DNA from: Octopus sinensis
Taxonomy: Eukaryota
DNA: 64,000 nt
Assembly: GCF_006345805.1 (NCBI RefSeq)
Contig: NC_042998.1
Span: 149,916,001 to 149,980,000 of the forward strand
Direction of reading: 5' to 3'
The notes beneath the pieces are model-generated. The model made no database searches and had not been told where the DNA came from. It saw only the letters and a program-made list of their open reading frames with translations. This document shows, piece after piece, positions 13,976 to 59,680 of the stretch (its first letter is position 1; each line of letters begins with the position of its first letter). Made by a program: the position numbers and the translations under genes.

Positions 13976-14251
13976 TATTACCACAGTGGTGTTCCAGCAT
14001 GGCTGCAGCTGTATAGTTGACATGTATAAAGGATAACCGAACTGAACATATATATATACATAGATACTAAGCAATAAAGGGTTTAGCAACGAATTGCCTT
14101 ACCACATACCGAATTTAGAAATAGCAGTCAAAGAGTTATAGCTATTTCTCTACTAAAAAGGGAGATCTCAGTAAAAACAGCAATTGGAAGGCAGACACAA
14201 ACAGGTAAGAGAGAATGAATTGACGGCAATCTATCATACAATTTTAAGTTA

Positions 14252-14351
14252 TCTACGGACGTACGTTTCGAAATCAAGTTTTTAGGAAAGCATAAGAATT
14301 AAATATTAAATAATTCTATCTCACCAAAACTTCTTTTCTCTTCAGCGTAGA
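14252..14351 (-). ncRNA. Type I hammerhead ribozyme (copy 1)
   Basis: Minus: tctacg-CTGAAGA-gaaa..[extended stem II]..tttc-GAAAC-gtac-GTC^cgtaga. Stem I 6 bp, GUC cleavage triplet. Confidence 0.85.
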
Positions 14352-14838
14352 AACTATAATCATAAATGATTATATATGAATTTTGAGATACTAGAAGGCA
14401 CCAACTCAACTCAGTATCAGAGCGAGCTAGAATCCGCAACTAGTATCCCAAAATTCAATGTGTGAATGAAAAGATTGTGTCACCAGCCCCTTCCCACCGC
14501 GTGTAGCCAAAACAAGCTGCTGTGTCATCTACTGAGATAAAATATGGTTATCCGTAATAATGAAGGGTGAAATTAATTAATTTGGAATAATTATCAATTA
14601 CACCAAGTAGTCTTCGGCATGTAAAAGCCTCATTCGAGGAAAATTTAAGTAATACTAAGCAATAAAGGTTTAGCAACGAATTGCCTTACCACATACCGAA
14701 TTTAGAAATAGCAGTCAAAGAGTTATAGCTATTTCTTCTACTAAAAAGGGAGATCTCAGTAAAAACAGCAATTGGAAGGCAGACACAAACAGGTAAGAGA
14801 GAATGAATTGACGGCAATCTATCATACATTTTAAGTTA

Positions 14839-14938
14839 TCTACGGACGTACGTTTCGAAATCAAGTTTTTAGGAAAGCATAAGAATTAAATATTAAATAA
14901 TTCTATCTCACCAAAACTTCTTTTCTCTTCAGCGTAGA
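14839..14938 (-). ncRNA. Type I hammerhead ribozyme (copy 2)
   Basis: Same fold, 587 nt from copy 1. Confidence 0.85.
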
Positions 14939-15231
14939 ATACTATAATCATAAATGATTATATATTGAATTTTGAGATACTAGAAGGCACCAACTCAACT
15001 CAGTATCAGAGCGAGCTAGAATCCGCAACTAGTATCCCCAAATTCAATGTGTGAATGAAAAGATTGTGTCACCAGCCCCTTCCCACCCGCGTGTAGCCAA
15101 AACAAGCTGCTGTGGTCATCTACTGAGATAAAATATGGTTATCCGTAATAATGAAGGGTGAAATTAATTAATTTGGAATAATTATCAATTACACATTCAC
15201 CCTTCATTATATACATAGATATATATACATA

Positions 15232-15288: not shown

Positions 15289-15699
15289 CGCAGGAGTGGC
15301 TGTGTGGTAAGTAGCTTGCTAACCAACCACATGGTTCTGGGTTCAATCCCACTGCGTGGCATCTTGGGCAAGTGTCTTCTGCTATAGCCCCGGGCCGACT
15401 AATGCCTGTGGATTTGGTAGACGGAAACTGAAAGAAGCCTGTCGTATATATGTATATATATATGTATATATATTGTGTGTGTGTGTTTGTGTGTCTGTGT
15501 TTGTCCCCCTGTGGTTGTCCCCACCAACCGATGCTGGTGTGTGTTTACGTCCCCGTCACTTAGCGGCTCGGCAAAAGAGACCGATAGAATAAGTACTGGG
15601 CTTACAAAGAATAAGTCCCGGGGTCGATTTGCTCGACTAAAGGCGGTGCTCCAGCATGGCCACAGTCAAATGACTGAAACAAGTAAAAGAGGAAAAGAG

Positions 15700-15700
<1 letters not shown>
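15287..15700 (+). mobile_element. Full-length bipartite SINE family 2 (tRNA-like head + internal (TA)(TG) microsatellite + 3' module)
   Basis: ggcgcaggagTGGCTGTGTGGtaag (A box), GGGTTCAATCCC (B box), ttgggcaagtgtcttct; tail cagcatggccacagtcaaatgactgaaacaagtaaaagag. More than 10 related copies in the window. Confidence 0.9.
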
Positions 15701-15753
<53 letters not shown>

Positions 15754-30732: not shown

Positions 30733-31278
30733 ATTATATAAAATCCGTTCTGTCTGTTTGTCTGTGTGTCTACTAGGATCTCGGGCATCCTCTATCTGAT
30801 TGCGCTCAAATTTAATATGTAGATACCGACGGTATCAGGGCGTGTATAAGTCTTGAAAAAATTACAAAAATTGATTCCAGGTGAGAAAGCCGATTTCGTC
30901 CTGCTTTTCTTACGTCGAGCTGTACATAACTGCACCTTCCATTTTTTATTGTTTTTGTACTACTTAAAGGCACGTTTCTTTCCTACCAAGCTTACTGTTT
31001 AAACCATGTCTGTGTTCTCCCAGTCAACAGCCTTATCATTACTGGTACTTTAAACTCTTCGGTTGCATATTTGTGTGAACAAAATCGCTTTTCTTTGGAA
31101 TAGTAAAAAAAAGTCTATCTTTATTTCTTCTTTTGTTAGTGTCTCACATTTAGGTTAAATCAGTGTTTCTCAAAGGAAAGCCTATGGGACGGTCGGACAA
31201 GTTGTTTTGAGAAAATTTGGTTTAAATGTTTGACAACTCAGCACCGTCAGTCGGACGTGGGGGGGGGGGCGTTTTGCT

Positions 31279-31280
<2 letters not shown>
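30733..31280 (+). mobile_element. Non-autonomous Helitron-like element (family 2), second copy with different interior
   Basis: Shares ~150 bp of 5' end and the cagcaccgtc..ggacg..ggggcgttttgctc 3' end with 27223-27739. Confidence 0.65.
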
Positions 31281-31343
<63 letters not shown>

Positions 31344-31345
<2 letters not shown>

Positions 31346-31830
31346 GGCATTATTACACATAAATGCCACACGCTAAGAGGGACTCTTAAGTCAAAACTAC
31401 TAAGATAAACATATCGTACCGAAAGCAAGTCTCGAAGCAAGTCATTTAAAAACATAATTCAGCTGCAGATCACCAGTGATTTCGTAATTAGTGCAGTCGT
31501 TCGTCTGGTATGCTGTTTTTGTTCATTCATTATAAATTTTGCATTATGCTTGCACCGATGAGTGAAGAGTGCATATAAATGCACTAATTACGAAATTACT
31601 GGTGATCTGCAGCTGAATTCTGTTTTTAAATGACTTGCTTCGAGACTTGCTTTCGGTACGATATGTTTATTTTAGTAGTTTTGACTTTAAGAGTCCCTCC
31701 TAGCGTGTGGCATTTATGTGTAATAATGCCCTCTATATAATAAAAATAAATATATTTAAGGAAAAAAAATTGAGGTTTTTCACGCTAACTACTTGATAAA
31801 TTCTTATAAAGATGTTATCCTATTTTTAAA
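31344..31830 (+). mobile_element. HHR-bearing element with ~152-bp inverted repeat, in (TA)n
   Basis: 31344-31495 is the reverse complement of 31580-31732. Terminal sequence agggcattat..atgcca.acgctaagagggac shared with 58494-59543. Confidence 0.8.
31548..31613 (+). ncRNA. Type I hammerhead-like ribozyme, CCGAUGA (U4C) core variant
   Basis: gcttgca-CCGATGA-gtga..agtgcat-ataa-atgcact..ttac-GAAA-ttac-tg-gtga-TC^tgcagc. Lies at the position homologous to the canonical HHR of the 58.5-kb element. Confidence 0.65.
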
Positions 31831-31853
31831 TTATATATATATATATATATATA

Positions 31854-31892
<39 letters not shown>

Positions 31893-32047
31893 TACCAATT
31901 AAGGACTGAACACGAAAAAGTGGACAGTCAACATGCTAGATATAGACGTCAAATCGCCATTCTCCACAAAAAGTCTATGTTCTCAGATCAAACTCAACAC
32001 AAAACCAAAACAATAAACAAGTGAAAAATATACGAAATAAATATTAC

Positions 32048-32113
32048 CCATGTACTAAATTCAGTTTCGGCTGTTATTTTCCGCAAGGAAAAGTGCAGCC
32101 ATCATCAGCATGG
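32048..32113 (-). ncRNA. Type I hammerhead ribozyme (inverted copy)
   Basis: Reverse complement of 32510-32575. Confidence 0.85.
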
Positions 32114-32509
32114 TCCCATATAAAATGTAATTTGCTGTACTAAATGCCAACACGATACCGAAATATCGCGTGCATGGAGTACGACTGTCCACTTTTTCGT
32201 GTTCAGTCCTTAATTGGTATATATAAATATTTTAATCTTCGGATTCTTTCTTTAATATGCTAGACCACTGGTTCTAATTGATAAATATCAATTTTTACTC
32301 TAAATTTAATGTTATATAAATATTTGTTCTCTAACCAATAAATTAACTGCTGCCAACTATTAGCTGCAGGCTAGTTTTCTCGGGTCTCATCGCGCCAAAA
32401 TTAGAGACATTTGAAATATATATTTCAAATGTAATAGGCCGTACTCCATGCACGCGATATTTCGGTATCGTGTTGGCATTTAGTACAGCAAATTACATTT
32501 TATATGGGA

Positions 32510-32575
32510 CCATGCTGATGATGGCTGCACTTTTCCTTGCGGAAAATAACAGCCGAAACTGAATTTAGTACATGG
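32510..32575 (+). ncRNA. Type I hammerhead ribozyme
   Basis: ccatg-CTGATGA-t-ggctg..ttttcc-ttgc-ggaaaa..cagcc-GAAA-ctga-at-ttag-TA^catgg. GUA triplet. Confidence 0.88.
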
Positions 32576-32822
32576 GTAAATATTTATTTCGTATATTTTT
32601 CACTTGTTTATTGTTTTGGTTTTGTGTGAGTTTGATCTGAGAACATAGACTTTTTGTGGAGAATGGCGATTTGACGTCTATATCTAGCATGTTGACTGTC
32701 CACTTTTTCGTGTTCAGTCCTTAATTGGTATATATAAATATTTTAATCTTCGGATTCTTTCTTTAATATGCTAGACCACTGGTTCTAATTGATAAATATC
32801 AATTTTTACCCTAAATTTAATG

Positions 32823-32858
<36 letters not shown>

Positions 32859-33039
32859 GAGAGACTTTTAGATTCCGTTTACCAAATATATTCACAAGGC
32901 ATTGGTAGGACCTAGTCTATGGTGGGACTGAACCTGGAATTATGCTATTGGGAAGACATTTTTTTACCACACCATCACACATCTGCCTATAATTATTTTT
33001 GATGTATCTTTATTTCCAGATTTAGGGTTGTAAAAGTAT

Positions 33040-33273
33040 ACGTCGAAACTTACCCGTCGTATACCGCGGTAAAACTAGTTGAAATGATCCGATTATATCT
33101 TGATAAAAATTAGCTGCGGAGGCTGTTATGCGAGTACATCAACGCTGATTGGCCACTGAAAGAAGTGTGATCCCGTGCCTCAACACTGATTGGCTGTCGA
33201 AAGTGATATGATTGTGACTCACTTTTTATTGGCTGCCATATGTCTCAAAACCGATCGCGTATTAGATGTAAGA
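33040..33273 (-). mobile_element. Possible short Helitron-like non-autonomous element
   Basis: Minus A^TCttacatctaata start, imperfect GC hairpin near 33053-33072, three internal attggc repeats. Confidence 0.35.
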
Positions 33274-33544
33274 TAACAGTAATATCTGTTATCCAATTGA
33301 GAATGGAGCGGAGGAGACTTAGCTTACTATTTTAGCAGGGTTGGTATTACTGCTGGTTTTATTGAGCATCAGGCCAGTCCAGACTGAGCAGACCTATTAT
33401 TAAATGCTTTCGATGTATGGCCATCACGTCTTCCTATTAGTCATTGCATATCTAGAATTACATTTTCCAATATGTTCCTTCTTTTTCAAGATGATAGGTT
33501 GTATGCTGAGGAACATTGGACTTCTGTTTCTCGCAAATTGAGTG

Positions 33545-39179: not shown

Positions 39180-39335
39180 CGTAGGAGTGACTGTGTGGTA
39201 AGTAGCTTGCTTACGAACCACATGGTTCTAGGTTCAGTCCCACTGCGTGGCACCTTGGGCAAAAACCAAAGCCATGTGAGTGGATTAGATAGACGGAAAC
39301 TGAAAGAAGCCCGTCGTATATATATATATATATAC

Positions 39336-39366
<31 letters not shown>

Positions 39367-39590
39367 TGTGTATGTATATGTTTGTGTGTCTGTGTTTGTC
39401 CCCCAACATCGCTTGACAACCGATGCTAGTGTGTTTACGCCCCCGTAAATTAGCGGTTCGGCGAAAGAGACCGATAGAATAAGTACTAGGCTTACAAAGA
39501 ATAAGTCCTGGGGTCGATTTGCTCGATTAAAAGGCGGTGCTCCAGCATGGCCTCAGTCACATGACTGAAACAAGTAAAAGAGTAAAAGAG
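39180..39590 (+). mobile_element. Full-length SINE family 2
   Basis: Colinear with 15287-15700, including the internal microsatellite. Confidence 0.9.
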
Positions 39591-40032
39591 TATATCTGAA
39601 GGTCGGCCTCAAAAATTCTTTTTTGATCTCTTTAAAGTTAGCTTTAGATAATTTCCTACTCCAAATCCTACAATATCAGTGGGATGTTCTAAGGATGGAA
39701 GGTTCCATTAGCAGGGAAGATTATCGAGAAGGTTTGTTATACTGTGGCTTAGTTGGAAATCAAAATGACTTGATTCTTCATCTGATAACTTTCCAGCAAT
39801 TATTTATGGAATTTTAAGACCTTTATTTTGATAATGATTACTTGTTAAAAGTTTGGTGGATCGGTTCTGGAATGCCACGTATGTGTAGGTTCAGTTGGTT
39901 TGGGCTTGTAAGCCATACACAAAGAGCAAGGGAAATAGGTGACACATAAGGCTTGTTACAGTATCATATGTGACTGTTACAGCTGTTTGGCTGGCCAATG
40001 ACCAGTGGGTTTGGCGGGTTTAAGTTGATTTA

Positions 40033-48663: not shown

Positions 48664-48709
48664 ACACAACAGAACAAGTAAAGTTTCTAACCCTAGGTAT
48701 ATAGTAAGG

Positions 48710-48766
48710 CCTGCTGATGAGAGTAAGGGATGTTATCTCTCAAAATTCGAAATCAGTTGATCCAGG
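48710..48766 (+). ncRNA. Type I hammerhead ribozyme within a ~280-bp element (48680-48960)
   Basis: cctg-CTGATGA-gagt..attc-GAAA-tca-gt-tga-TC^cagg. AUC triplet. Stem I 5' strand (aggcctg) identical to the 58.6-kb HHR. Confidence 0.8.
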
Positions 48767-48967
48767 TATATTTATCGCCCCATTCTGTGGCTTTATGCCG
48801 AGATGGTAATTTAATTTATTTGCTTGTTGCCTGATTACTGTTGTGCCTGTTGCATTTCCATTAAAATGGTGGTCTATTAGAGGAATTTTCGACTCTGATT
48901 TTTACATCTATGCTGGCACCTCGTGTGACCTCAATTATAAATTAATTATTAAATTTTAGATATGCAC

Positions 48968-49876: not shown

Positions 49877-50027
49877 CGAATATGATTCCACTCTTGATCA
49901 CAACTGCCCGACGAAAGTTGTGATGTTTTGCAGCTTTAATAAAAAAGCAGATTACTTTACCTTCGGTATTGGAGTACTATATTTTCCACCTTATTTTGCA
50001 TGTATGTGCTGACTCGTGTATATGAGA

Positions 50028-50127: not shown

Positions 50128-50614
50128 CTGTTTTTGTTATTATTATTATCATTATTGTTTTTACGTATTTTCGTATTCTTATTCGTGTTATCATTATTAT
50201 TTTTACGTATGTTTGTATTCTTATTCGTTCCCGTCCTTGTTTTGTATACATTCAGGGCTTTCTTCCAAGGAATCTAATGCGCTTGGCTTAGATTTTCCTT
50301 TGGAGCTGGCCAGGTCGGAGCAATCTCAAGATTAATCAGCCGAAATTGTGAGGATGATCCGGTTCTTGACTGAAGATTGAAGGCTTCGAATGTCCCATCC
50401 GTGTTTTTTGTATCGTCTTCTAAATGTTCTGCGTTCTTGTCTCAGTTTGTATTTTTTTGCATATACATATATATATAGCGGTGCCCGTACCCTTTTTGGT
50501 CTTGTATGTAAGTACATTTTTCTTTAAACTTGGTACGACTCTATAACACTGTCTCTCTCTCTCCTCTCTCTTACATTTCTCTGCCTTTCACACTTTGCAC
50601 TCCACTTTGATCTG

Positions 50615-50662
<48 letters not shown>

Positions 50663-51177
50663 TCCGCCTTTGTTCCTTGTTCCCCTTTTTCTCTCTTCCT
50701 CTGTCCCTCTTTTCCTCTCTCTTCTCCTTACACGTGACTAACTTTGGACTGCTGTCTGTCCTTTTCGTGGTCAGCAACCGCCGAGGCTAGACACATTTTT
50801 TCTCTCTTCGCCTCAAGGCATTTTTCTAATTGCGCCTGCTCAAGTTCACCCATTCTGTCGAAAAGACGCCTGTCTGTGACGTCCTGCTTTTGTTATTATT
50901 ATTATCATTATTATTTTTACGTAGTTTAGTATTCTTATTCGTTCCCGTCCTTGTTTTGTATACATTCGAGGCTTTCTTCCAAGGAATCTAATGCGCTTGG
51001 CTTAGATTTTCCTTTGGCGCTGGCCAGGTCGGAGCAATCTCAAGATTAATCAGCCGAAATTGCGAGGATGATCCGGTTCTTGAGTGAAGATTGAAGGCTT
51101 CGAATATCCCGTCCGTGTTTTTTGTATCGTCCTCTCAATGTTTTGCGTTCTTGTCCCAGTTTGTATTTTTTTGCATA
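50128..51177. repeat. Partial tandem / LTR-like direct repeat (~714-bp period) bounded by microsatellites
   Basis: ~50135-50470 repeated at ~50885-51177 with scattered substitutions. Contains the hairpin ccaaggaatctaa..ttagattttcctttgg. Confidence 0.75.
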
Positions 51178-51294
51178 TATATATATATATATATATACCG
51201 GAGTAAGCACATAAATGTGAAACAAGGTGGAAAAGAAGACTACTCAAATACCAGTGGTAGAGTAATATGTTTTATTTAAAAGCAGCAGAAATAT

Positions 51295-51347
51295 AACAAA
51301 AGCTGTTACTCAGAGTTTCACGTTCCCGTTCGTCCGACAGATTTGTT
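51295..51347 (-). ncRNA. Hammerhead-like motif, CGGACGA core (probably inactive)
   Basis: Minus: ctgt-CGGACGA-acg-ggaa-cgt-GAAA-ctc-t-gag-TA^acag. Confidence 0.55.
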
Positions 51348-51877
51348 AAAATAGAACAGAAATAATGATATGATCAAAACTAGTTAAAGGATACATCTTT
51401 AAAAATGGATTTGTTTCATTGGTCTTTTCAATTGACGGTCTTAATCATGCAATGAACAAAATAAATAAAATTAATGAATTCAATATAAATTCATCCGATT
51501 ATAAAAATCGAGGAAAATCTAAAATCGAAGAGCAGTATATACGCATGCTAAACAATCAATATACATATATTGTAAAATATTTATGTAATGCAGCGTGAAC
51601 ATTTTAATTTTAATTTTAATTTTTAATGTATTAATTGTATTAATTGAATTATATTTCGTATATAACTATTTGCAATATGTATTTTGAATCCGCTCTTCGA
51701 TTTAAGGTTTTCCTCGATTTTTGTAATAGGATGAATTTATACTGAATTCATTTATTTTGTTTATTTTGTTCATTGCATGCTTAAGACTGTTAATTGAAAG
51801 GACCAATGAAACAAATCCATTTTTAAAGGTGTATACTTTAACTAGTTTTGATCATATCATTATTTCGGTTCTATTTT

Positions 51878-51930
51878 AACAAAACTGTCCGACGAACGGG
51901 AACGTGAAACTCTGAGTAACAGGTTTTGTT
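51878..51930 (+). ncRNA. Type I hammerhead-like ribozyme, CCGACGA core variant
   Basis: aacaaaactgt-CCGACGA-acg-ggaa-cgt-GAAA-ctc-t-gag-TA^acaggttttgtt. Long stem I, GNRA-capped stem II. Confidence 0.7.
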
Positions 51931-52066
51931 ATATTTCTGCTGCGTGACGTAAGATGTAAGTAAGCATGTGTACAAATGCCCAAGTGGTTATGAAGTTTTG
52001 AGGTATATATATGTATATGTATATATATATGTATATGTATATGTATATGTATATATATATATATAT

Positions 52067-53375: not shown

Positions 53376-53415
53376 TAATTGTAATATGAATATAAATAAT
53401 TGTAATGTTCATATA

Positions 53416-55014
53416 CAGTGGGAGGAAATAAATATTCGTAAATGTCAAAATTCTTTATTTATTTAATTTCTAATGAACATAAATGGGATATACCAATACT
53501 ATATTTGCATACACATGCATAAACTAAGAATATACAAAAGAAACTAATAAATTATAGTAACTAAGGAATTTATATACAATCATAAATATTTAGGGGTGAA
53601 AAAATTATTCGTACAGAATAAATTTATGATTTTCTATGCCACAAAATACTGTTAAAATAATTTTTTACTAGAACTTTCTCGCTCGTTCCAATAATCTTAT
53701 CAGTTGTCATTTTTAAGTGTCAAAACGCTAGCTTCTTCATTCAGCACTGAGACAACATAAAGTAGTATCATAATAATGGCGAAAAGTAAAGAACTCACAA
53801 ATACAGTGAAAGACTTCATTATTGAACAGTGGAAAGCAGGTAAAAGTTACAGGAAAATATCAGACACCTTTTGTATTCCATTTTCTACCATATCTTCATT
53901 TATTGAAAGATATAAAAAGTCGGGAACTGTTGAAAACAGAATAAGATCCAGTGCACCATGCAAGATTTCCTCTAGATCTTTAAGAAAAATGAAGTAAGGA
54001 ATCGAAAAAAAAACGCAATGATCACTAGAAAGGAGTTGCAAGAAGATTTATTAGCTTCAGGGAATAGTGTTACACTACGGACAATCAGCAATGAACTTCA
54101 TAGGAATGAACTGAAGTTACGCTCTCCTAGAAAAACTCTGCTGTTGACTAGAAGGCATAGAGATGCCCATTTAAAATTTGTTTATGAACATAAAGATAAA
54201 CGTGATACATTCTGGGAAAATGTTCTATGGACAGACTAGTCGAAAATTGAATTGTTTGGACGAAATTCGCGTAGACATGTTTGGAGGAAAGATGGTACCG
54301 CCTATTCGCCGAAAAACACAATTCCTACCATAAAGTTTGGAGGTGGCAACATCATGGTGTGGGAGTTTTTTCTCTGCAAATGGTACTGGCAATTTACATG
54401 TGATAGATGGTAGAATGAATGCAGAGATGTACCAAAATATTTTGAACAATAATTTATGGGACTCTGTAGAAAAGCTCCAGTTTTGTGAAGGGTGGGTTTT
54501 ACAACGGGATAACGACCCTAAGCACACAGCGAAGTCTACCAAAAAATGGATTGTCGATCACTATATAAAATTATTAGAATGGCCATGCCAGTCACCTGAC
54601 TTGAACTCCATTGAAAATTCGTGGCGTTATTTGAAAATTAAAATTCATTCAACGTGCATTCAAGATTTGAAGAAAATTTGTCAAGAAGAATGGGAAAAAA
54701 TGTCTAAAGAAACATGCGAGCCATTGATTAAGAACTACAAGAAGAGATTGGTTGCAGTGGAACTGAATAATGGTTATGCTACGAAGTATTAAATCAGAAT
54801 TATCAGTCATTTATGCTCTGTACGAATACCTTTTTCACCCCTAAATATTTATAATTGTATATAAATTCCTTAGTAACTATAATTTATTAGTTTCTTTTGC
54901 ATATTCTTAGTTGATGCATGTGTATGCAAATATAGTATTGGTATATCCCATTTATGTTCATTAGAAATTAGATAAAGAATTTTGACATTTACGAATATTT
55001 ATTTCCTCCCACTG
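53416..55014 (+). mobile_element. Full-length Tc1-family DNA transposon (DD34E), ~200-bp TIRs, TA target
   Basis: TA^cagtgggaggaaataaatattcgtaaatgtc ... gacatttacgaatatttatttcctcccactg^TA. Long TIRs with internal repeated aaa.tattcgta sites (IR/DR type). Confidence 0.95.
53776..54792 (+). pseudogene. Tc1 transposase pseudogene
   Basis: MAKSKELT.. HTH region; WTD*SK, QRDNDPKH-(34 aa)-SPDLNSIENSW, GYATKY end. In-frame stops and frameshifts. Confidence 0.92.
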
Positions 55015-55039
55015 TATATATATATATTAATTATATATA

Positions 55040-58000
55040 AACTTAGATAGACTTAGATATGTTTCGACCAAAGATTGGTCCAGGCCATGTCTAACTTAAT
55101 AGCACCACCTGATAGGATTATCTAAATCCTGTTTAAGTCAAGTTTTGTTTATGGTCCATTCAATTAGTGAGTTTTTGTTGGGTGAGTTGTATCCAATTAT
55201 GGGTGGCTTATCTGGTATTCCTTGAAGGAATCTATCCAGACTCCGTTTAAAGTTGATGGGATCCTTTTCCTCTTTGATCTCTTTCGGGACAATGTTAAAT
55301 AGGGCAGGGCCTGTTAAGGAAAAGAAATTATGTTGCAGTGTACATATATGCTGTGATCCTGAATTGGGCAGGGGACGTATGGCCTGTGGTCCCAGTCGTG
55401 GATGAACGTTGAAGCTAATGTTCAGGTCGCTTGGGCAAAGTTGGCGGTATATTCTCCACATCGTACAAATGATGTACCGCTCACGGTGGCGCTGGAGAGA
55501 GAGTAGAGATTCAAGGCTTTAAGGTGGTCCCAATAATCGAGAGCAGCCATGCCTTCAATTCGTTTTGTGAGTGCCCTCTGAATTGATTCAATCCTCGAGA
55601 TGTTTTGTCTTGTATGGGGAGACCACAGTGGGCAGCAGTATTCGAGGTGTGGCCGTACAAAGGAGGAGAAAAGTGGTATGATGACACCTTGTTCTCTGGA
55701 CCGGAAGGTTCTTAAGATCCAGGAACTCATCCTACGAGCTATATCGACCATATTGTTGAAGTGGGCATTCCAACTGAGATTGTCATCAACAATTACGTCC
55801 AGGTCTCTGATATTGTTAGAGGCTGTGAGCGGTTCCCCTGAAGGAAGAGAGTATGGCTGTTTTATTGTGGACTTTCTCCCAAAATGCATCAGCTCAAATT
55901 TTCCCTCGTTCAGTTGCATTTTGTTTGTCTGCCCATTGACTCACAGCATGTAGATCAGACTGGAGTTGAGTTCGGTCTGCTTCTTCATTGATGATTTGCT
56001 GGAGCTTAGTGTCATCAGCAAATATTTTCACTTTTCAGGAATGTACGACACTGGAAAGGTCGTTTATATAAATTATAAAGAGGAGCGGGGTCAAAACATT
56101 CCTCTGGGGGACACCGCTGGTGACTTTTGCTGGGCTTGAGTGGACTCCCTCGACTACATGTTGTGTTCTATTCGCCAGGAAATACTTGATCCAGTGTAGA
56201 AGCTTTCCACGGATTCCAACATTTGCCAACTTTGAGAGTAGGATATTATGGCCAACCCTGTCGAACGCTTTACTGAAGTCAAGATATATGACATCAGAGT
56301 GCGAACCTGTTCCCAAGGCTTTAAGTATATCTTCAATGTGGTGTAAGAGCTGTGTTAGACAGTCCCTGCCACAGCGAAAGCCATGCTGATTTGCATTTAG
56401 GAGTTTGTGGGTCTCCAGGAAGTCAGCTATCCTTGATCTTAACACTCTTTCAAACACTTTAATGATGTGGGATGTGAGTGAGATTGGGCGATAGTTGACT
56501 GCGAAATCCGGGATGACAGACTGGGATAGAAGCTGTTTCAGTATATAACCTGAGTCTAACGAATTTCTCCAGAGGTTGGTCAGAGGGACTGCAAGTTGGT
56601 GTCTACATTTCTTCAGGAGACTAGCGGGGAATCTATCAGGGCCTACAGCAGAATAGTATTTGACTTCATTTATTGCTGCTATGATGTCAGAGGCAGTGAA
56701 TGTTATGTCTGAGATTTTATGTTGGGTATCAACTTCATTCGTTTCTCTTACGTCAATATCAGTGGGAACACTAAAGACAGAGCAGTATTGTTTCTGCAGT
56801 ATTTCTGCCATTTCTTTAGCATCGTGTTGTGGAATGCCGTTATCATCAATCAATGGCCCAATGGGTGAGACAGTGGTTCTATGCTTATTTGCATAAGAAT
56901 AGAACACTTTTGGGATCTGTTTGATGTTTTTGATTACCCACTGTTCCTCCACAGCTCTTTGATTTTCAATGGAGGTTTTCATGTCTGTCTGCAGATGAAG
57001 ACTTTCTAACTCCAGCCTTTTCCTTGTTGTTGAATGTGGATGTTGTATGTGGGAATATTTTAATTGGTTGACTTTTTTATTGAGTCTTTTGATGCGCCTG
57101 ATGAGTGTTTTTTTTTCTTTTTAGGGAGCCGATTTCTGTTAGTGTTAGTGGATTTCGTAGGAGCGTGTTTTGAGCATGTATAGGTGACAATGTTCTCAAA
57201 GTGCAGCCATGCGGTCTCATTTGGGTGGAATTCAGAGTAAAAGACCAGTCGGTGAAAGACAGATCCTTTCTGATTGCTCCCCAGTCCGCTTTGTGGAAGT
57301 TTATGTTGTCAAATGAATGCTATGGAGTGGGATTGGTTGGTTTGGTTTTTATATGTCGGGAATTAAAATTGCAGAGTACCATGTCGTGGTCTGAGACGGC
57401 AGTTTTTTCAATTGAAATACTGTGAATAGAGCTAGAGTGATCCAAGATCGTTTTATTCTGTACTGTTGGTTCGAGCACTAGCTGAGTCAGGAAGAATTTA
57501 TCCATTAGATTAAAGAGGAATTCTGCTGCTGCTTTATCTGATGTAGAGCATTTGCCTAACTTCAGAGTATTTGTGGGCCAGTTTATATGAGGGAGGTTAA
57601 AATCACCCATCACTAGTATGTTTCCGGAGTTGTATTTTTGAAGGAAGGACTTGATTTTGTTAAGGCACTCTTCAAAGCACTTTAGAGGTGCTTGGGGAGG
57701 CCTGTAAAGACCAGCAATGATTATGTCTTTGGCTTTGTTGAACAGTGATATAGATTCACAATAGCCATTGGAAAATATGTTCTTGGCATCAAGTGAAAAG
57801 GAGTCCCACCCTTATTTCGGTCTGTGCGATCTGCACGAACGATGGTGAAATCTTTTATTTTCACCTCGGCATCCATATGTGTGTTGTTTAGGTGAGTTTC
57901 AGTAAGGATAAAGAAAGGGAAGCAATGTGTTATTTCGGCAAGCCAACTCTCTATATATGGGATCTTCCATTTTTGGGCAATGATTGATAGGTTGATGCTA

Positions 58001-58490: not shown

Positions 58491-58633
58491 ATTTATATAG
58501 AGGGCATTATACATACATGCCAGGAGGCATTATACATACATGCCAAACGCTAAGAGGGACAATCAGTCATTTCTACCAAAAATATTACTAATCCCACCGA
58601 TGCAATTTTTCAAAGTAAGACATTTAAAAATAT

Positions 58634-58681
58634 AGACCTGTATCACAGTGATTTCATACTTACGTAATCATCAGCAGGCCT
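58634..58681 (-). ncRNA. Type I hammerhead ribozyme (copy 1)
   Basis: Minus: aggcctg-CTGATGA-t-tac-gtaa-gta-t-GAAA-tcac-t-gtga-TA^caggtct. 7-bp stem I, AUA triplet. Confidence 0.82.
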
Positions 58682-59108
58682 GAATGTATTATAAATAAAC
58701 AACGACCCTGCCTCGCTTAAGCCGATCAGCTAACTGATCAACATCAACGAAGCACATGGTGAGTTTATATATATTACATCCGGGTAAATGGCAAACTTTT
58801 ACGAATTGCATTTCGGGAGAGGAAAAGTTTTTTCGGAATAAAAATTTAGCAATTAAGGACAACTACTAATAAGGAAAACTTAACAAGAAATTGTCAGGTA
58901 GATAGCGTAAAAACCTCATAAGAGAAAAAATTTCGAAAATAATTATTTCTTATTGAACATATTAATTTATATATAGAGGGCATTATACATACATGCCAGG
59001 AGGCATTATACATACATGCCAAACGCTAAGAGGGACAATCAGTCATTTCTACCAAAAATATTACTAATCCCACGAATGCAATTTTTCAAAGTAAGACATT
59101 TAAAAAAT

Positions 59109-59156
59109 AGACCTGTATCACAGTGATTTCATACTTACGTAATCATCAGCAGGCCT
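59109..59156 (-). ncRNA. Type I hammerhead ribozyme (copy 2)
   Basis: Identical motif 475 nt from copy 1. Confidence 0.82.
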
Positions 59157-59680
59157 GAATGTATTATAAATAAACAACGACCCTGCCTCGCTTAAGCCGA
59201 TCAGCTAACTGATCAACATCAACGAAGCACATGGGTGAGTTTATATATATTACATCCGGTAAATGCAAACTTTTACGAATTGCATTTCGGGAGAGGAAAA
59301 GTGTTTTCGAATAAAATTTAGCAATTAAGGACAACTACTTAATAAGGAAAACTTAACAAGAAATTGTCAGGTAGATAGCGTAAAAACCTCATAAGAGAAA
59401 AAATTTCGAAAATAATTATTTCTTATTGAACATATTAATTTATATATAGAGGGCATTATACATACATGCCAGGAGGCATTATACATACATGCCAAACGCT
59501 AAGAGGGACAATCAGTCATTTCTACCAAAAATATTACTAATCCTATATATATATATATATATATATTAATTCACAATAGTAAAATGACAATAAAAGAACG
59601 AGACCTCTATGTGATGAAAATAGAGGAATTTATATGTGTGTGTGTGTGTATACATATATACATATATTGTGTGTGGTGTA

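Follow-up and report, generated by a model that had tools for sequence, protein, structure and literature searches.

A non-coding hammerhead repeat inserted head-to-head in an octopus (TA)n tract, with the end pattern of Penelope-like elements

Insertions of Penelope-like elements (PLEs) are described as a partial tandem next to which lies an inverted, 5'-truncated copy, with a tail of 30–40 bp at one end, often within (TA)n (PMC8557442, PMC3846280). Pairs of hammerheads on opposite strands, 100–700 bp apart, were reported in 2014 (PMC4209133), and the same source describes the ribozymes of metazoan PLEs as having an extra base, a long helix II, a short helix I and a palindromic helix III, and as cleaving poorly alone. 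A TATA-box-like motif has been noted in a rotifer pLTR (PMC3846280). The purified PLE protein of Anolis (PAc) cleaves AT-rich DNA on both strands and extends each of them with uncleaved RNA as template, and its reverse transcription begins at two internal RNA positions whose spacing equals the tail (PMC11167929). A 2026 preprint (Li, Clavereau & Pollet, 10.64898/2026.07.22.740005) ties animal retrozymes to the pLTRs of PLEs, and reports cleavage for one of nine Xenopus retrozyme dimers tested. For octopus, a repeat annotation gives counts of Penelope families with recent activity, and the portion of its text considered here does not mention hammerheads (PMC13282606).

We describe an insertion that combines features of these systems, at 31895–32823 of a 64,000-nucleotide stretch of Octopus sinensis DNA (the window, that is, the whole stretch analysed).

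Layout of the insert and its ribozymes

The insert lies between a (TA)n tract at 31832–31894 on its left, delimited by TRF and comparison of the ends, and another at 32824–32856 on its right (TRF). Its left part is an arm, 31887–32183, which is the reverse complement of 32440–32736 with 99.3% identity over 298 alignment columns, the differences being two 1-nt indels. The outermost eight arm bases, TATATATA, are common to the flanking (TA)n, leaving 31895–32183 (minus strand, 289 nt) as the element-specific arm, an inverted, 5'-truncated copy of unit positions 32440–32728. The rest of the insert, 32184–32823 on the plus strand, is a partial tandem of 640 nt, or 1.25 units of 511 nt; positions 32183–32323 recur at 32694–32834, an overlap of 141 nt within which 32299/32810 and the TA end are the sole differences between the copies. 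One full period, 32184–32694, is non-coding and has a GC content of 33%. The two parts meet head-to-head at 32183–32184, where a single nucleotide (G) is common to both sides and the sequence is not palindromic, and the gap between the two arms is 256 nt. An initial annotation had described an inverted copy of about 295 bp joined at 32183 to about 1.3 copies of a 511-bp unit without any ORF, and the alignments bear out the first part of this. The second part holds as well: stop-to-stop frames that overlap the element reach 71 aa at most, and four of them, compared with Pfam, gave no match. At 32442, 32530, 32614 and 32616 the two arms agree on letters that are in the minority in two public sequencing runs (X1 and X2, see below), as would be expected of one template or one subfamily. 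A target-site duplication is unreadable inside (TA)n.

The unit contains three TA-type tracts of six or more bases. The inverted arm ends, without a tail, at tract 1 (32729–32736 on the plus strand, again TATATATA), 158 nt 3' of the predicted cleavage site, and the forward copy ends 95 nt further on, where its terminus matches the internal TATATA of tract 2 (32313–32318 in the upstream copy). The stretch 32729–32823 is found in the forward copy only and corresponds to a one-end tail; at 95 nt, and 98 nt in the neighbouring insertion described below, such tails are outside the published range of 30–40 bp in the sources cited above. With its inverted 5'-truncated copy, partial tandem, one-end tail and (TA)n target, the locus has the Penelope-style architecture that the initial annotation had proposed. 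The upstream copy of tract 1, TATATATA at 32218–32225 (plus strand), lies 34 nt inside the forward copy and may be read as TATA-box-like in both directions, though as a putative promoter only. A bacterial promoter scan, whose model is not applicable to this DNA, gave a result below chance.

Each strand of the insert carries a type I hammerhead. In the plus-strand motif (32510–32575), helix I pairs 32510–32514 with 32571–32575, the core (32515–32521) is followed by an extra U at 32522, between positions 9 and 10.1, helix II pairs 32523–32527 with 32550–32554 around an inner hairpin at 32531–32546, GAAA occupies 32555–32558, and helix III (32558–32569) is a self-complementary stretch of 12 nt; cleavage is predicted after A32570. 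The mirror-image motif on the minus strand of the arm (32048–32113) has its core start at 32108 and its predicted cleavage site after 32053. The motif occurs above chance: the hammerhead descriptor matched nine times in the window against zero in all 100 block shuffles, and it matched none of 2000 shuffles of the 511-nt unit. The Rfam hammerheads gave no match at the gathering threshold across the whole window, nor at E<=10 in 31200–33000, and the 27 weak Rfam matches at E<=10 are chiefly AT-repeat noise. The local MFE structure of the plus-strand ribozyme region is the hammerhead fold. Helix III is predicted at +0.3 kcal/mol as a hairpin versus −11.0 kcal/mol (dimer MFE) as 12 bp between two molecules, and the predicted two-molecule fold is a double hammerhead. 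The extra U, the long helix II, the 5-bp helix I and the self-complementary helix III set the motif apart from the fully canonical form. The earlier description of canonical hammerheads on both strands is thus upheld for the core, which matches the consensus on each strand, and has to be modified for the extra U, the long helix II, the short helix I and the lack of an Rfam match; the motifs are PLE-type rather than canonical in the sense of PMC4209133.

The two ribozymes face outward, and RNA entering from either flank carries the complement of a ribozyme arm first. In folding models, which describe equilibrium and not kinetics, helices I, II and III had p=0.00 in all six plus-strand and all four minus-strand transcripts that start outside the antisense ribozyme copy, and this masking persisted in transcripts ending just beyond the cleavage site. 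The predicted dsRNA stem pairs 287 of the 289 arm bases. Because the antisense arm is transcribed first, the ribozyme helices would be lost on read-through; the modelled RNA buries both ribozymes in a duplex of about 290 bp, in which they are predicted to be silent, and the dsRNA stem and the active ribozyme are predicted to be alternatives rather than to occur together. The suggestion that transcription in either direction would meet both a ribozyme and a ~295-bp stem therefore survives for the predicted stem and finds no support in the folding models for the ribozyme. Modelled transcripts that start inside 32120–32500 keep helix II (p about 1.0) and, in part, helices I and III, and helix I is context-dependent even when the antisense arm is omitted (p 0.00–0.74). 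The forward part, 32184–32823, holds a single complete sense-strand ribozyme, so that no unit-length monomer could be released by double cleavage. The preprint reserves the term active for two consecutive complete units (10.64898/2026.07.22.740005); by that definition the locus, a 1.25-mer copy of its family, is not an active source.

The unit as a whole is predicted to fold into a rod from which the hammerhead branches off at the side (z −4.89 as a linear molecule, 100 shuffles; z −5.3 as a circle on 32260–32770, 40 shuffles). Among 17 unit variants listed from the public runs, two fall in ribozyme helices, six at unpaired places and nine at paired places outside the ribozyme. Both ribozyme-helix variants keep the pair (G-C to G-U and G-U to A-U), and one of them perfects the helix III palindrome. 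All nine of the paired variants outside the ribozyme break the predicted rod, taken singly and unphased, an argument against exact conservation of the rod even with z values of −4.9 to −5.3.

Neighbouring insertions and the family in public runs

A sequence-unrelated hammerhead-family insertion at 31343–31831 (plus strand) borders the (TA)n tract of 31832–31894 from the other side, as the initial annotation had recognised. Its alignment score against the 511-nt unit is 60, compared with a shuffle mean of 59.5. It consists of an arm (31343–31495, a copy of 31580–31733) and a forward part (31496–31831) with a 98-nt tail in the forward copy only. Its arm, too, ends at an internal TATATA, and its 98-nt extension aligns with the interior of a related 473-bp element (58494–59543). 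It has one complete hammerhead (core 31555, with C at core position 4), for which no local hammerhead fold is predicted and helix I has p 0.05.

The 64-kb window contains two further head-to-head hammerhead insertions besides 31895–32823, and this layout is routine in the host genome. The second of them, at 51199–51943, is an older, ~92%-type diverged pair with arms of about 250 nt; it has a hammerhead-like motif with a decayed core on each strand, and its minus copy is about 83 nt longer. A 3' piece related to it lies at 49918–50023. On the minus strand, 58494–59543 comprises 2.2 tandem copies of a unit of ~473–475 bp in (TA)n, with complete hammerheads at cores 59149 and 58674. This element ends at tract 1 and has neither an inverted arm nor a tail; its predicted fold is strong (z −7.24), and it carries the two ribozymes by which the preprint recognises an active retrozyme (10.64898/2026.07.22.740005). 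A 587-bp unit at 14064–15194 (minus strand), present in about 1.9 tandem copies, carries two hammerheads (cores 14932 and 14345) with a very long helix II (z −7.19), and a single truncated copy at 48665–48960 (plus strand) has a hammerhead core at 48714, predicted cleavage after 48762 and a helix I like that of the 473-bp unit. The units 32184–32694, 58972–59444 and 14064–14651 have no detectable sequence kinship, and their predicted folds look similar on inspection: each is a long rod capped by a hairpin, and the hammerhead branches off to the side just after it. We claim no kinship between the 511-nt unit and the four other hammerhead elements, whose alignment scores were 60, 81, 132 and 77 against shuffle maxima of 79, 121, 161 and 68.

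The window also holds repeats of other kinds. A 302-bp direct repeat (50176–50477 and 50890–51191, 94% alike and 714 bp apart), both copies of which terminate in (TA)n, gave no hammerhead match. A SINE-like dispersed repeat occurs at 32857–32978, 15289–15705, 39180–39595 and elsewhere; its piece beside the element has a depth of 2,916 in run X14 versus about 7 for the element. A broken LINE at 55000–57800 (minus strand) retains pieces of an RT (RVT_1, E 3e-20) and an AP-endonuclease, and a DDE_3 transposase piece lies between ~235-bp inverted repeats at 53391–55039. For comparison with Pfam, 27 of the 127 frames of at least 90 aa were selected and the four from the element added; the matches among these 31 frames were the LINE RT and endonuclease and the DDE transposase, with no GIY-YIG and no PLE match.

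Words of the insert were found in 20 of 24 listed runs, from nine studies and under four organism labels. All of these data are contigs, in which molecule ends, strand and A>G editing are not visible, and no run is listed as RNA. Four of the runs were compared with 32324–33530 only (one period and the right flank). In X1 and X2, the summed contig depth over 12 element bins is 35,000–672,000, against 40–45 on the single flank contig, figures that are not a copy number; single element contigs reach depths of 1,961 and 1,354. Public DNA runs thus contain the 511-base unit as a family of very high abundance. Record 9 of X14 runs through 32707–32811 and then 32325–32566, crossing the unit boundary, which shows that the head-to-tail joint exists beyond the window. 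No strand-changing joint corresponding to the inversion is listed in the four runs, whose contigs drop rare joints and of whose loose ends a further 156 fall outside the listing, and no pile-up of molecule starts or ends appears in these four contig runs, which cannot show such ends reliably. X1 and X2 differ from the window at two places in the flank. Exact scans for a 23-nt motif gave zero matches in metagenome and viral contigs.

Some features of individual runs may be recorded separately. In X14, which we guess to be RNA, one contig stops at 32566, four nucleotides before the cleavage site, and depth is zero over 32570–32610; we discount this gap as a sign of cleavage, since contigs of X8 pass through the site. 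At a loose end before 32649 in X14, a low-depth contig starts with a sequence resembling a template-switch cDNA adaptor, joined at about 32640 on the ribozyme-sense strand, a hint that X14 is RNA and the family transcribed. X1, X2 and X8 have a variant with A in place of T at 32505, and their loose ends near 32583 hint at a corresponding substitution at 32580; together, though unphased, these would swap U-A to A-U just beyond helix I. In X2 and X8 many contigs (28 in X2) exit the unit at 32707 into similar but different sequence, which appears to be a related subfamily with 32650–32707 in common.

Possible origin of the insertion

The most probable origin, in our judgement, is that the 511-nt unit is a non-LTR retrozyme that was inserted in trans at (TA)n by a Penelope-like RT-endonuclease. 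We infer the PLE partner, priming on two strands, pairing of the TA tracts, a circle or multimer as template, and cleavage. An autonomous PLE would supply the RT-GIY-YIG protein that binds the unit RNA in trans, this RNA being either a multimer or a cleaved and religated circle. The enzyme would nick both strands of (TA)n and extend both 3' ends, with cDNA synthesis beginning at two positions within the RNA that are separated by 95 nt, both of them at a short TA tract able to pair with the nicked target. Extension of the right-hand primer would start at site 2 and proceed for 640 nt, reading through an intact ribozyme and past the unit boundary, to give 1.25 units and the tail; the left-hand primer would be extended by 289 nt from site 1, tract 1 at 32729–32736, giving the tail-less arm. 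Joining of the two truncated cDNA ends on 1 nt of microhomology would then leave the two parts head-to-head and give both strands a ribozyme. Since the 640-nt cDNA crosses a unit boundary, the template would have to be a multimer or a religated circle.

A PLE-type insertion is favoured by the recurrence of the same layout, an arm without a tail and a forward copy with one (98 nt), in the unrelated neighbour. The published PLE insertion pattern, the in vitro behaviour of the PAc protein and the PLE traits of the ribozyme speak for it too. Against it stand the 95-nt tail, compared with 30–40 nt in the published cases, and the published reverse-transcription starts, which are described as non-homologous to the target (PMC11167929). 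On the same side are the lack of an autonomous PLE among the 31 frames compared with Pfam, the missing inversion joint in the contigs of four runs, the context dependence of helix I, the paired variants that break the rod and the low proportion of Xenopus dimers that cleaved. A more specific version of the proposal is two-strand TPRT of a circular retrozyme RNA, in which the nicked (TA)n would pair with the TA tracts of the RNA in the fashion of telomerase, with starts fixed some 95–98 nt apart in sequence-unrelated families; this we offer tentatively, as a possibility short of an even chance. If it is true, the locus would be direct genomic evidence that animal retrozymes move in trans as more-than-unit cDNAs and not by local pLTR duplication, and homology-guided priming and a long tail would be added to the PLE mechanism. 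The TA tracts could alternatively be scars of older target sites.

Two other priming schemes were considered. Twin priming on a single molecule with collision of the cDNAs would fit the stop of the forward copy 34–42 nt past the upstream tract 1, and we do not claim it: by our estimate about one in six random stops would fit, and the neighbour does not. Fold-back self-priming we reject, the junction being non-palindromic.

Insertion in trans has also to be weighed against origins at the DNA level. A plain tandem retrozyme insertion might have acquired its inverted arm later, through a template switch in repair or replication, or two insertions might have met head-to-head in one (TA)n. The near-identity of the arms, the repeated insertions that the (TA)n tracts here receive and a junction homology of just 1 nt would suit such a history. 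It would leave unexplained why no TA remnant lies at the junction and why the arm has its outer end precisely at tract 1, a position also found for the neighbour and the 473-bp element; the junction, with 256 nt between the arms, forms no fold-back palindrome, and the four minority letters common to both arms argue in the same direction. We regard this origin as unlikely, though it is the strongest of the competing accounts.

Somewhat less likely still is that the element is no more than a truncated pLTR, the terminal repeat region of an autonomous PLE, and not independently mobile. Insertions of PLEs are mostly 5'-truncated, and retrozymes are similar to pLTRs (10.64898/2026.07.22.740005); depth in the runs climbs toward 32650–32733, roughly as 5' truncation predicts. 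Yet the sequence begins to repeat after 511 nt and contains no frame longer than 71 aa, and the independent X14 contig (record 9) spans the identical unit boundary.

The absence of the inversion joint from the contigs of four runs, and the fact that both differences between the arms are 1-nt indels of the kind made by read errors, raise the question of an assembly or chimeric-read artefact. Such an artefact would hardly place ends on like sites in two unrelated families or produce the older, ~92%-type diverged head-to-head pair at 51199–51943, and the asymmetric tail agrees with the published PLE pattern; we think it very improbable.

Least credible of all is a two-way device of the host or the element, with a bidirectional TATA at 32218–32225 firing outward to give ribozymes free of their complements, or with a read-through duplex that is edited or diced: modelled transcripts starting in 32120–32500 do keep helix II and part of I and III, a bidirectional TATATATA has been proposed in rotifer pLTRs (PMC3846280) and the duplex is predicted, but the locus has no transcript support, its near-identical arms mark a young insertion with no sign of selection, and no host gene is found among the 31 frames scanned with Pfam. 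On the reading we favour, the locus is the scar of an insertion and was not designed as a two-way device.

Comparison with known systems

The unit resembles the animal non-LTR retrozymes of Cervera & de la Pena 2020 (PMC7229834) and Li et al. 2026 in being non-coding, with GC below 50%, arranged head-to-tail with one type I hammerhead per unit and present in high copy. A strongly self-paired circle with the ribozyme free to fold is predicted for the unit as well, although the paired variants noted above break the predicted rod. Its length of 511 nt is within the 51–972 bp range of the preprint and above the 150–450 bp of PMC7229834. Inverted arms or tails of retrozyme insertions do not come up in these two texts (PMC7229834 and 10.64898/2026.07.22.740005), as judged by counts of the terms. 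Such features are those of the EN+ PLEs (Penelope/Poseidon, Neptune and Hydra; PMC8557442, PMC3846280, PMC4209133), which have an inverted 5'-truncated copy, a partial tandem, a one-end tail and (TA)n, and whose ribozymes, like that of the unit, combine a palindromic helix III and a long helix II with an additional base between 9 and 10.1 and occur in opposite-strand pairs. EN+ PLEs differ in the RT/GIY-YIG ORF, which is absent from the insert, and in their tail, 30–40 nt versus 95 nt here; without an RT and GIY-YIG ORF, the insert is not an autonomous EN+ PLE. The inverted junctions of rotifer PLEs are described as palindromic, the basis of a self-priming model, whereas the junction of the insert is not.

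The mechanism described for PAc (Frangieh et al. 2024, PMC11167929) shares with our proposal the cutting and extension of both strands, two internal reverse-transcription starts downstream of the ribozyme, an uncleaved RNA template and an AT-rich target. The PAc starts lie in an AC-rich stem-loop, non-homologous to the target and 30–40 nt apart, whereas the ends of the insert are target-matching TA tracts 95 nt apart. Non-autonomous Chlamys elements of the MRC1 type (PMC8557442) are, like the unit, ORF-less PLE derivatives arranged head-to-tail at microsatellite targets, and they carry pLTRs; they differ in coming from green algae, in their (CA)n or (C)n targets and, in most Chlamys, in having no canonical hammerhead. 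In L1 twin priming, primers from opposite target strands yield an inverted 5' part and a forward 3' part. The insert differs in having no poly(A) and in the multimeric or circular template proposed for it, and the two cDNAs of the neighbour copy an identical stretch, which would require two units or two molecules.

In the mainly open-access literature searched, we found no published report of retrozymes with inverted or tailed ends, or of retrozymes in cephalopods; the supplements of PMC7229834, PMC4209133 and PMC8557442 and Repbase may list the family. As a single locus the insert is an ordinary young transposon scar, of value mainly as a clean record of copying. The origin of the tandem and inverted ends of PLEs, and whether PLEs mobilise animal retrozymes, are open questions in the literature cited (PMC8557442; 10.64898/2026.07.22.740005), and an abundant, short, ORF-less family with the full PLE end pattern makes both of them computationally testable: thousands of breakpoints in one genome could fix the reverse-transcription starts, separate circle from multimer and test pairing with the target. 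The architecture itself has already been published for PLEs, and the insert adds a member to a known class of genome parasites; less usual here, at the two loci that display them, are the 95–98-nt tail and the ends on target-matching tracts.
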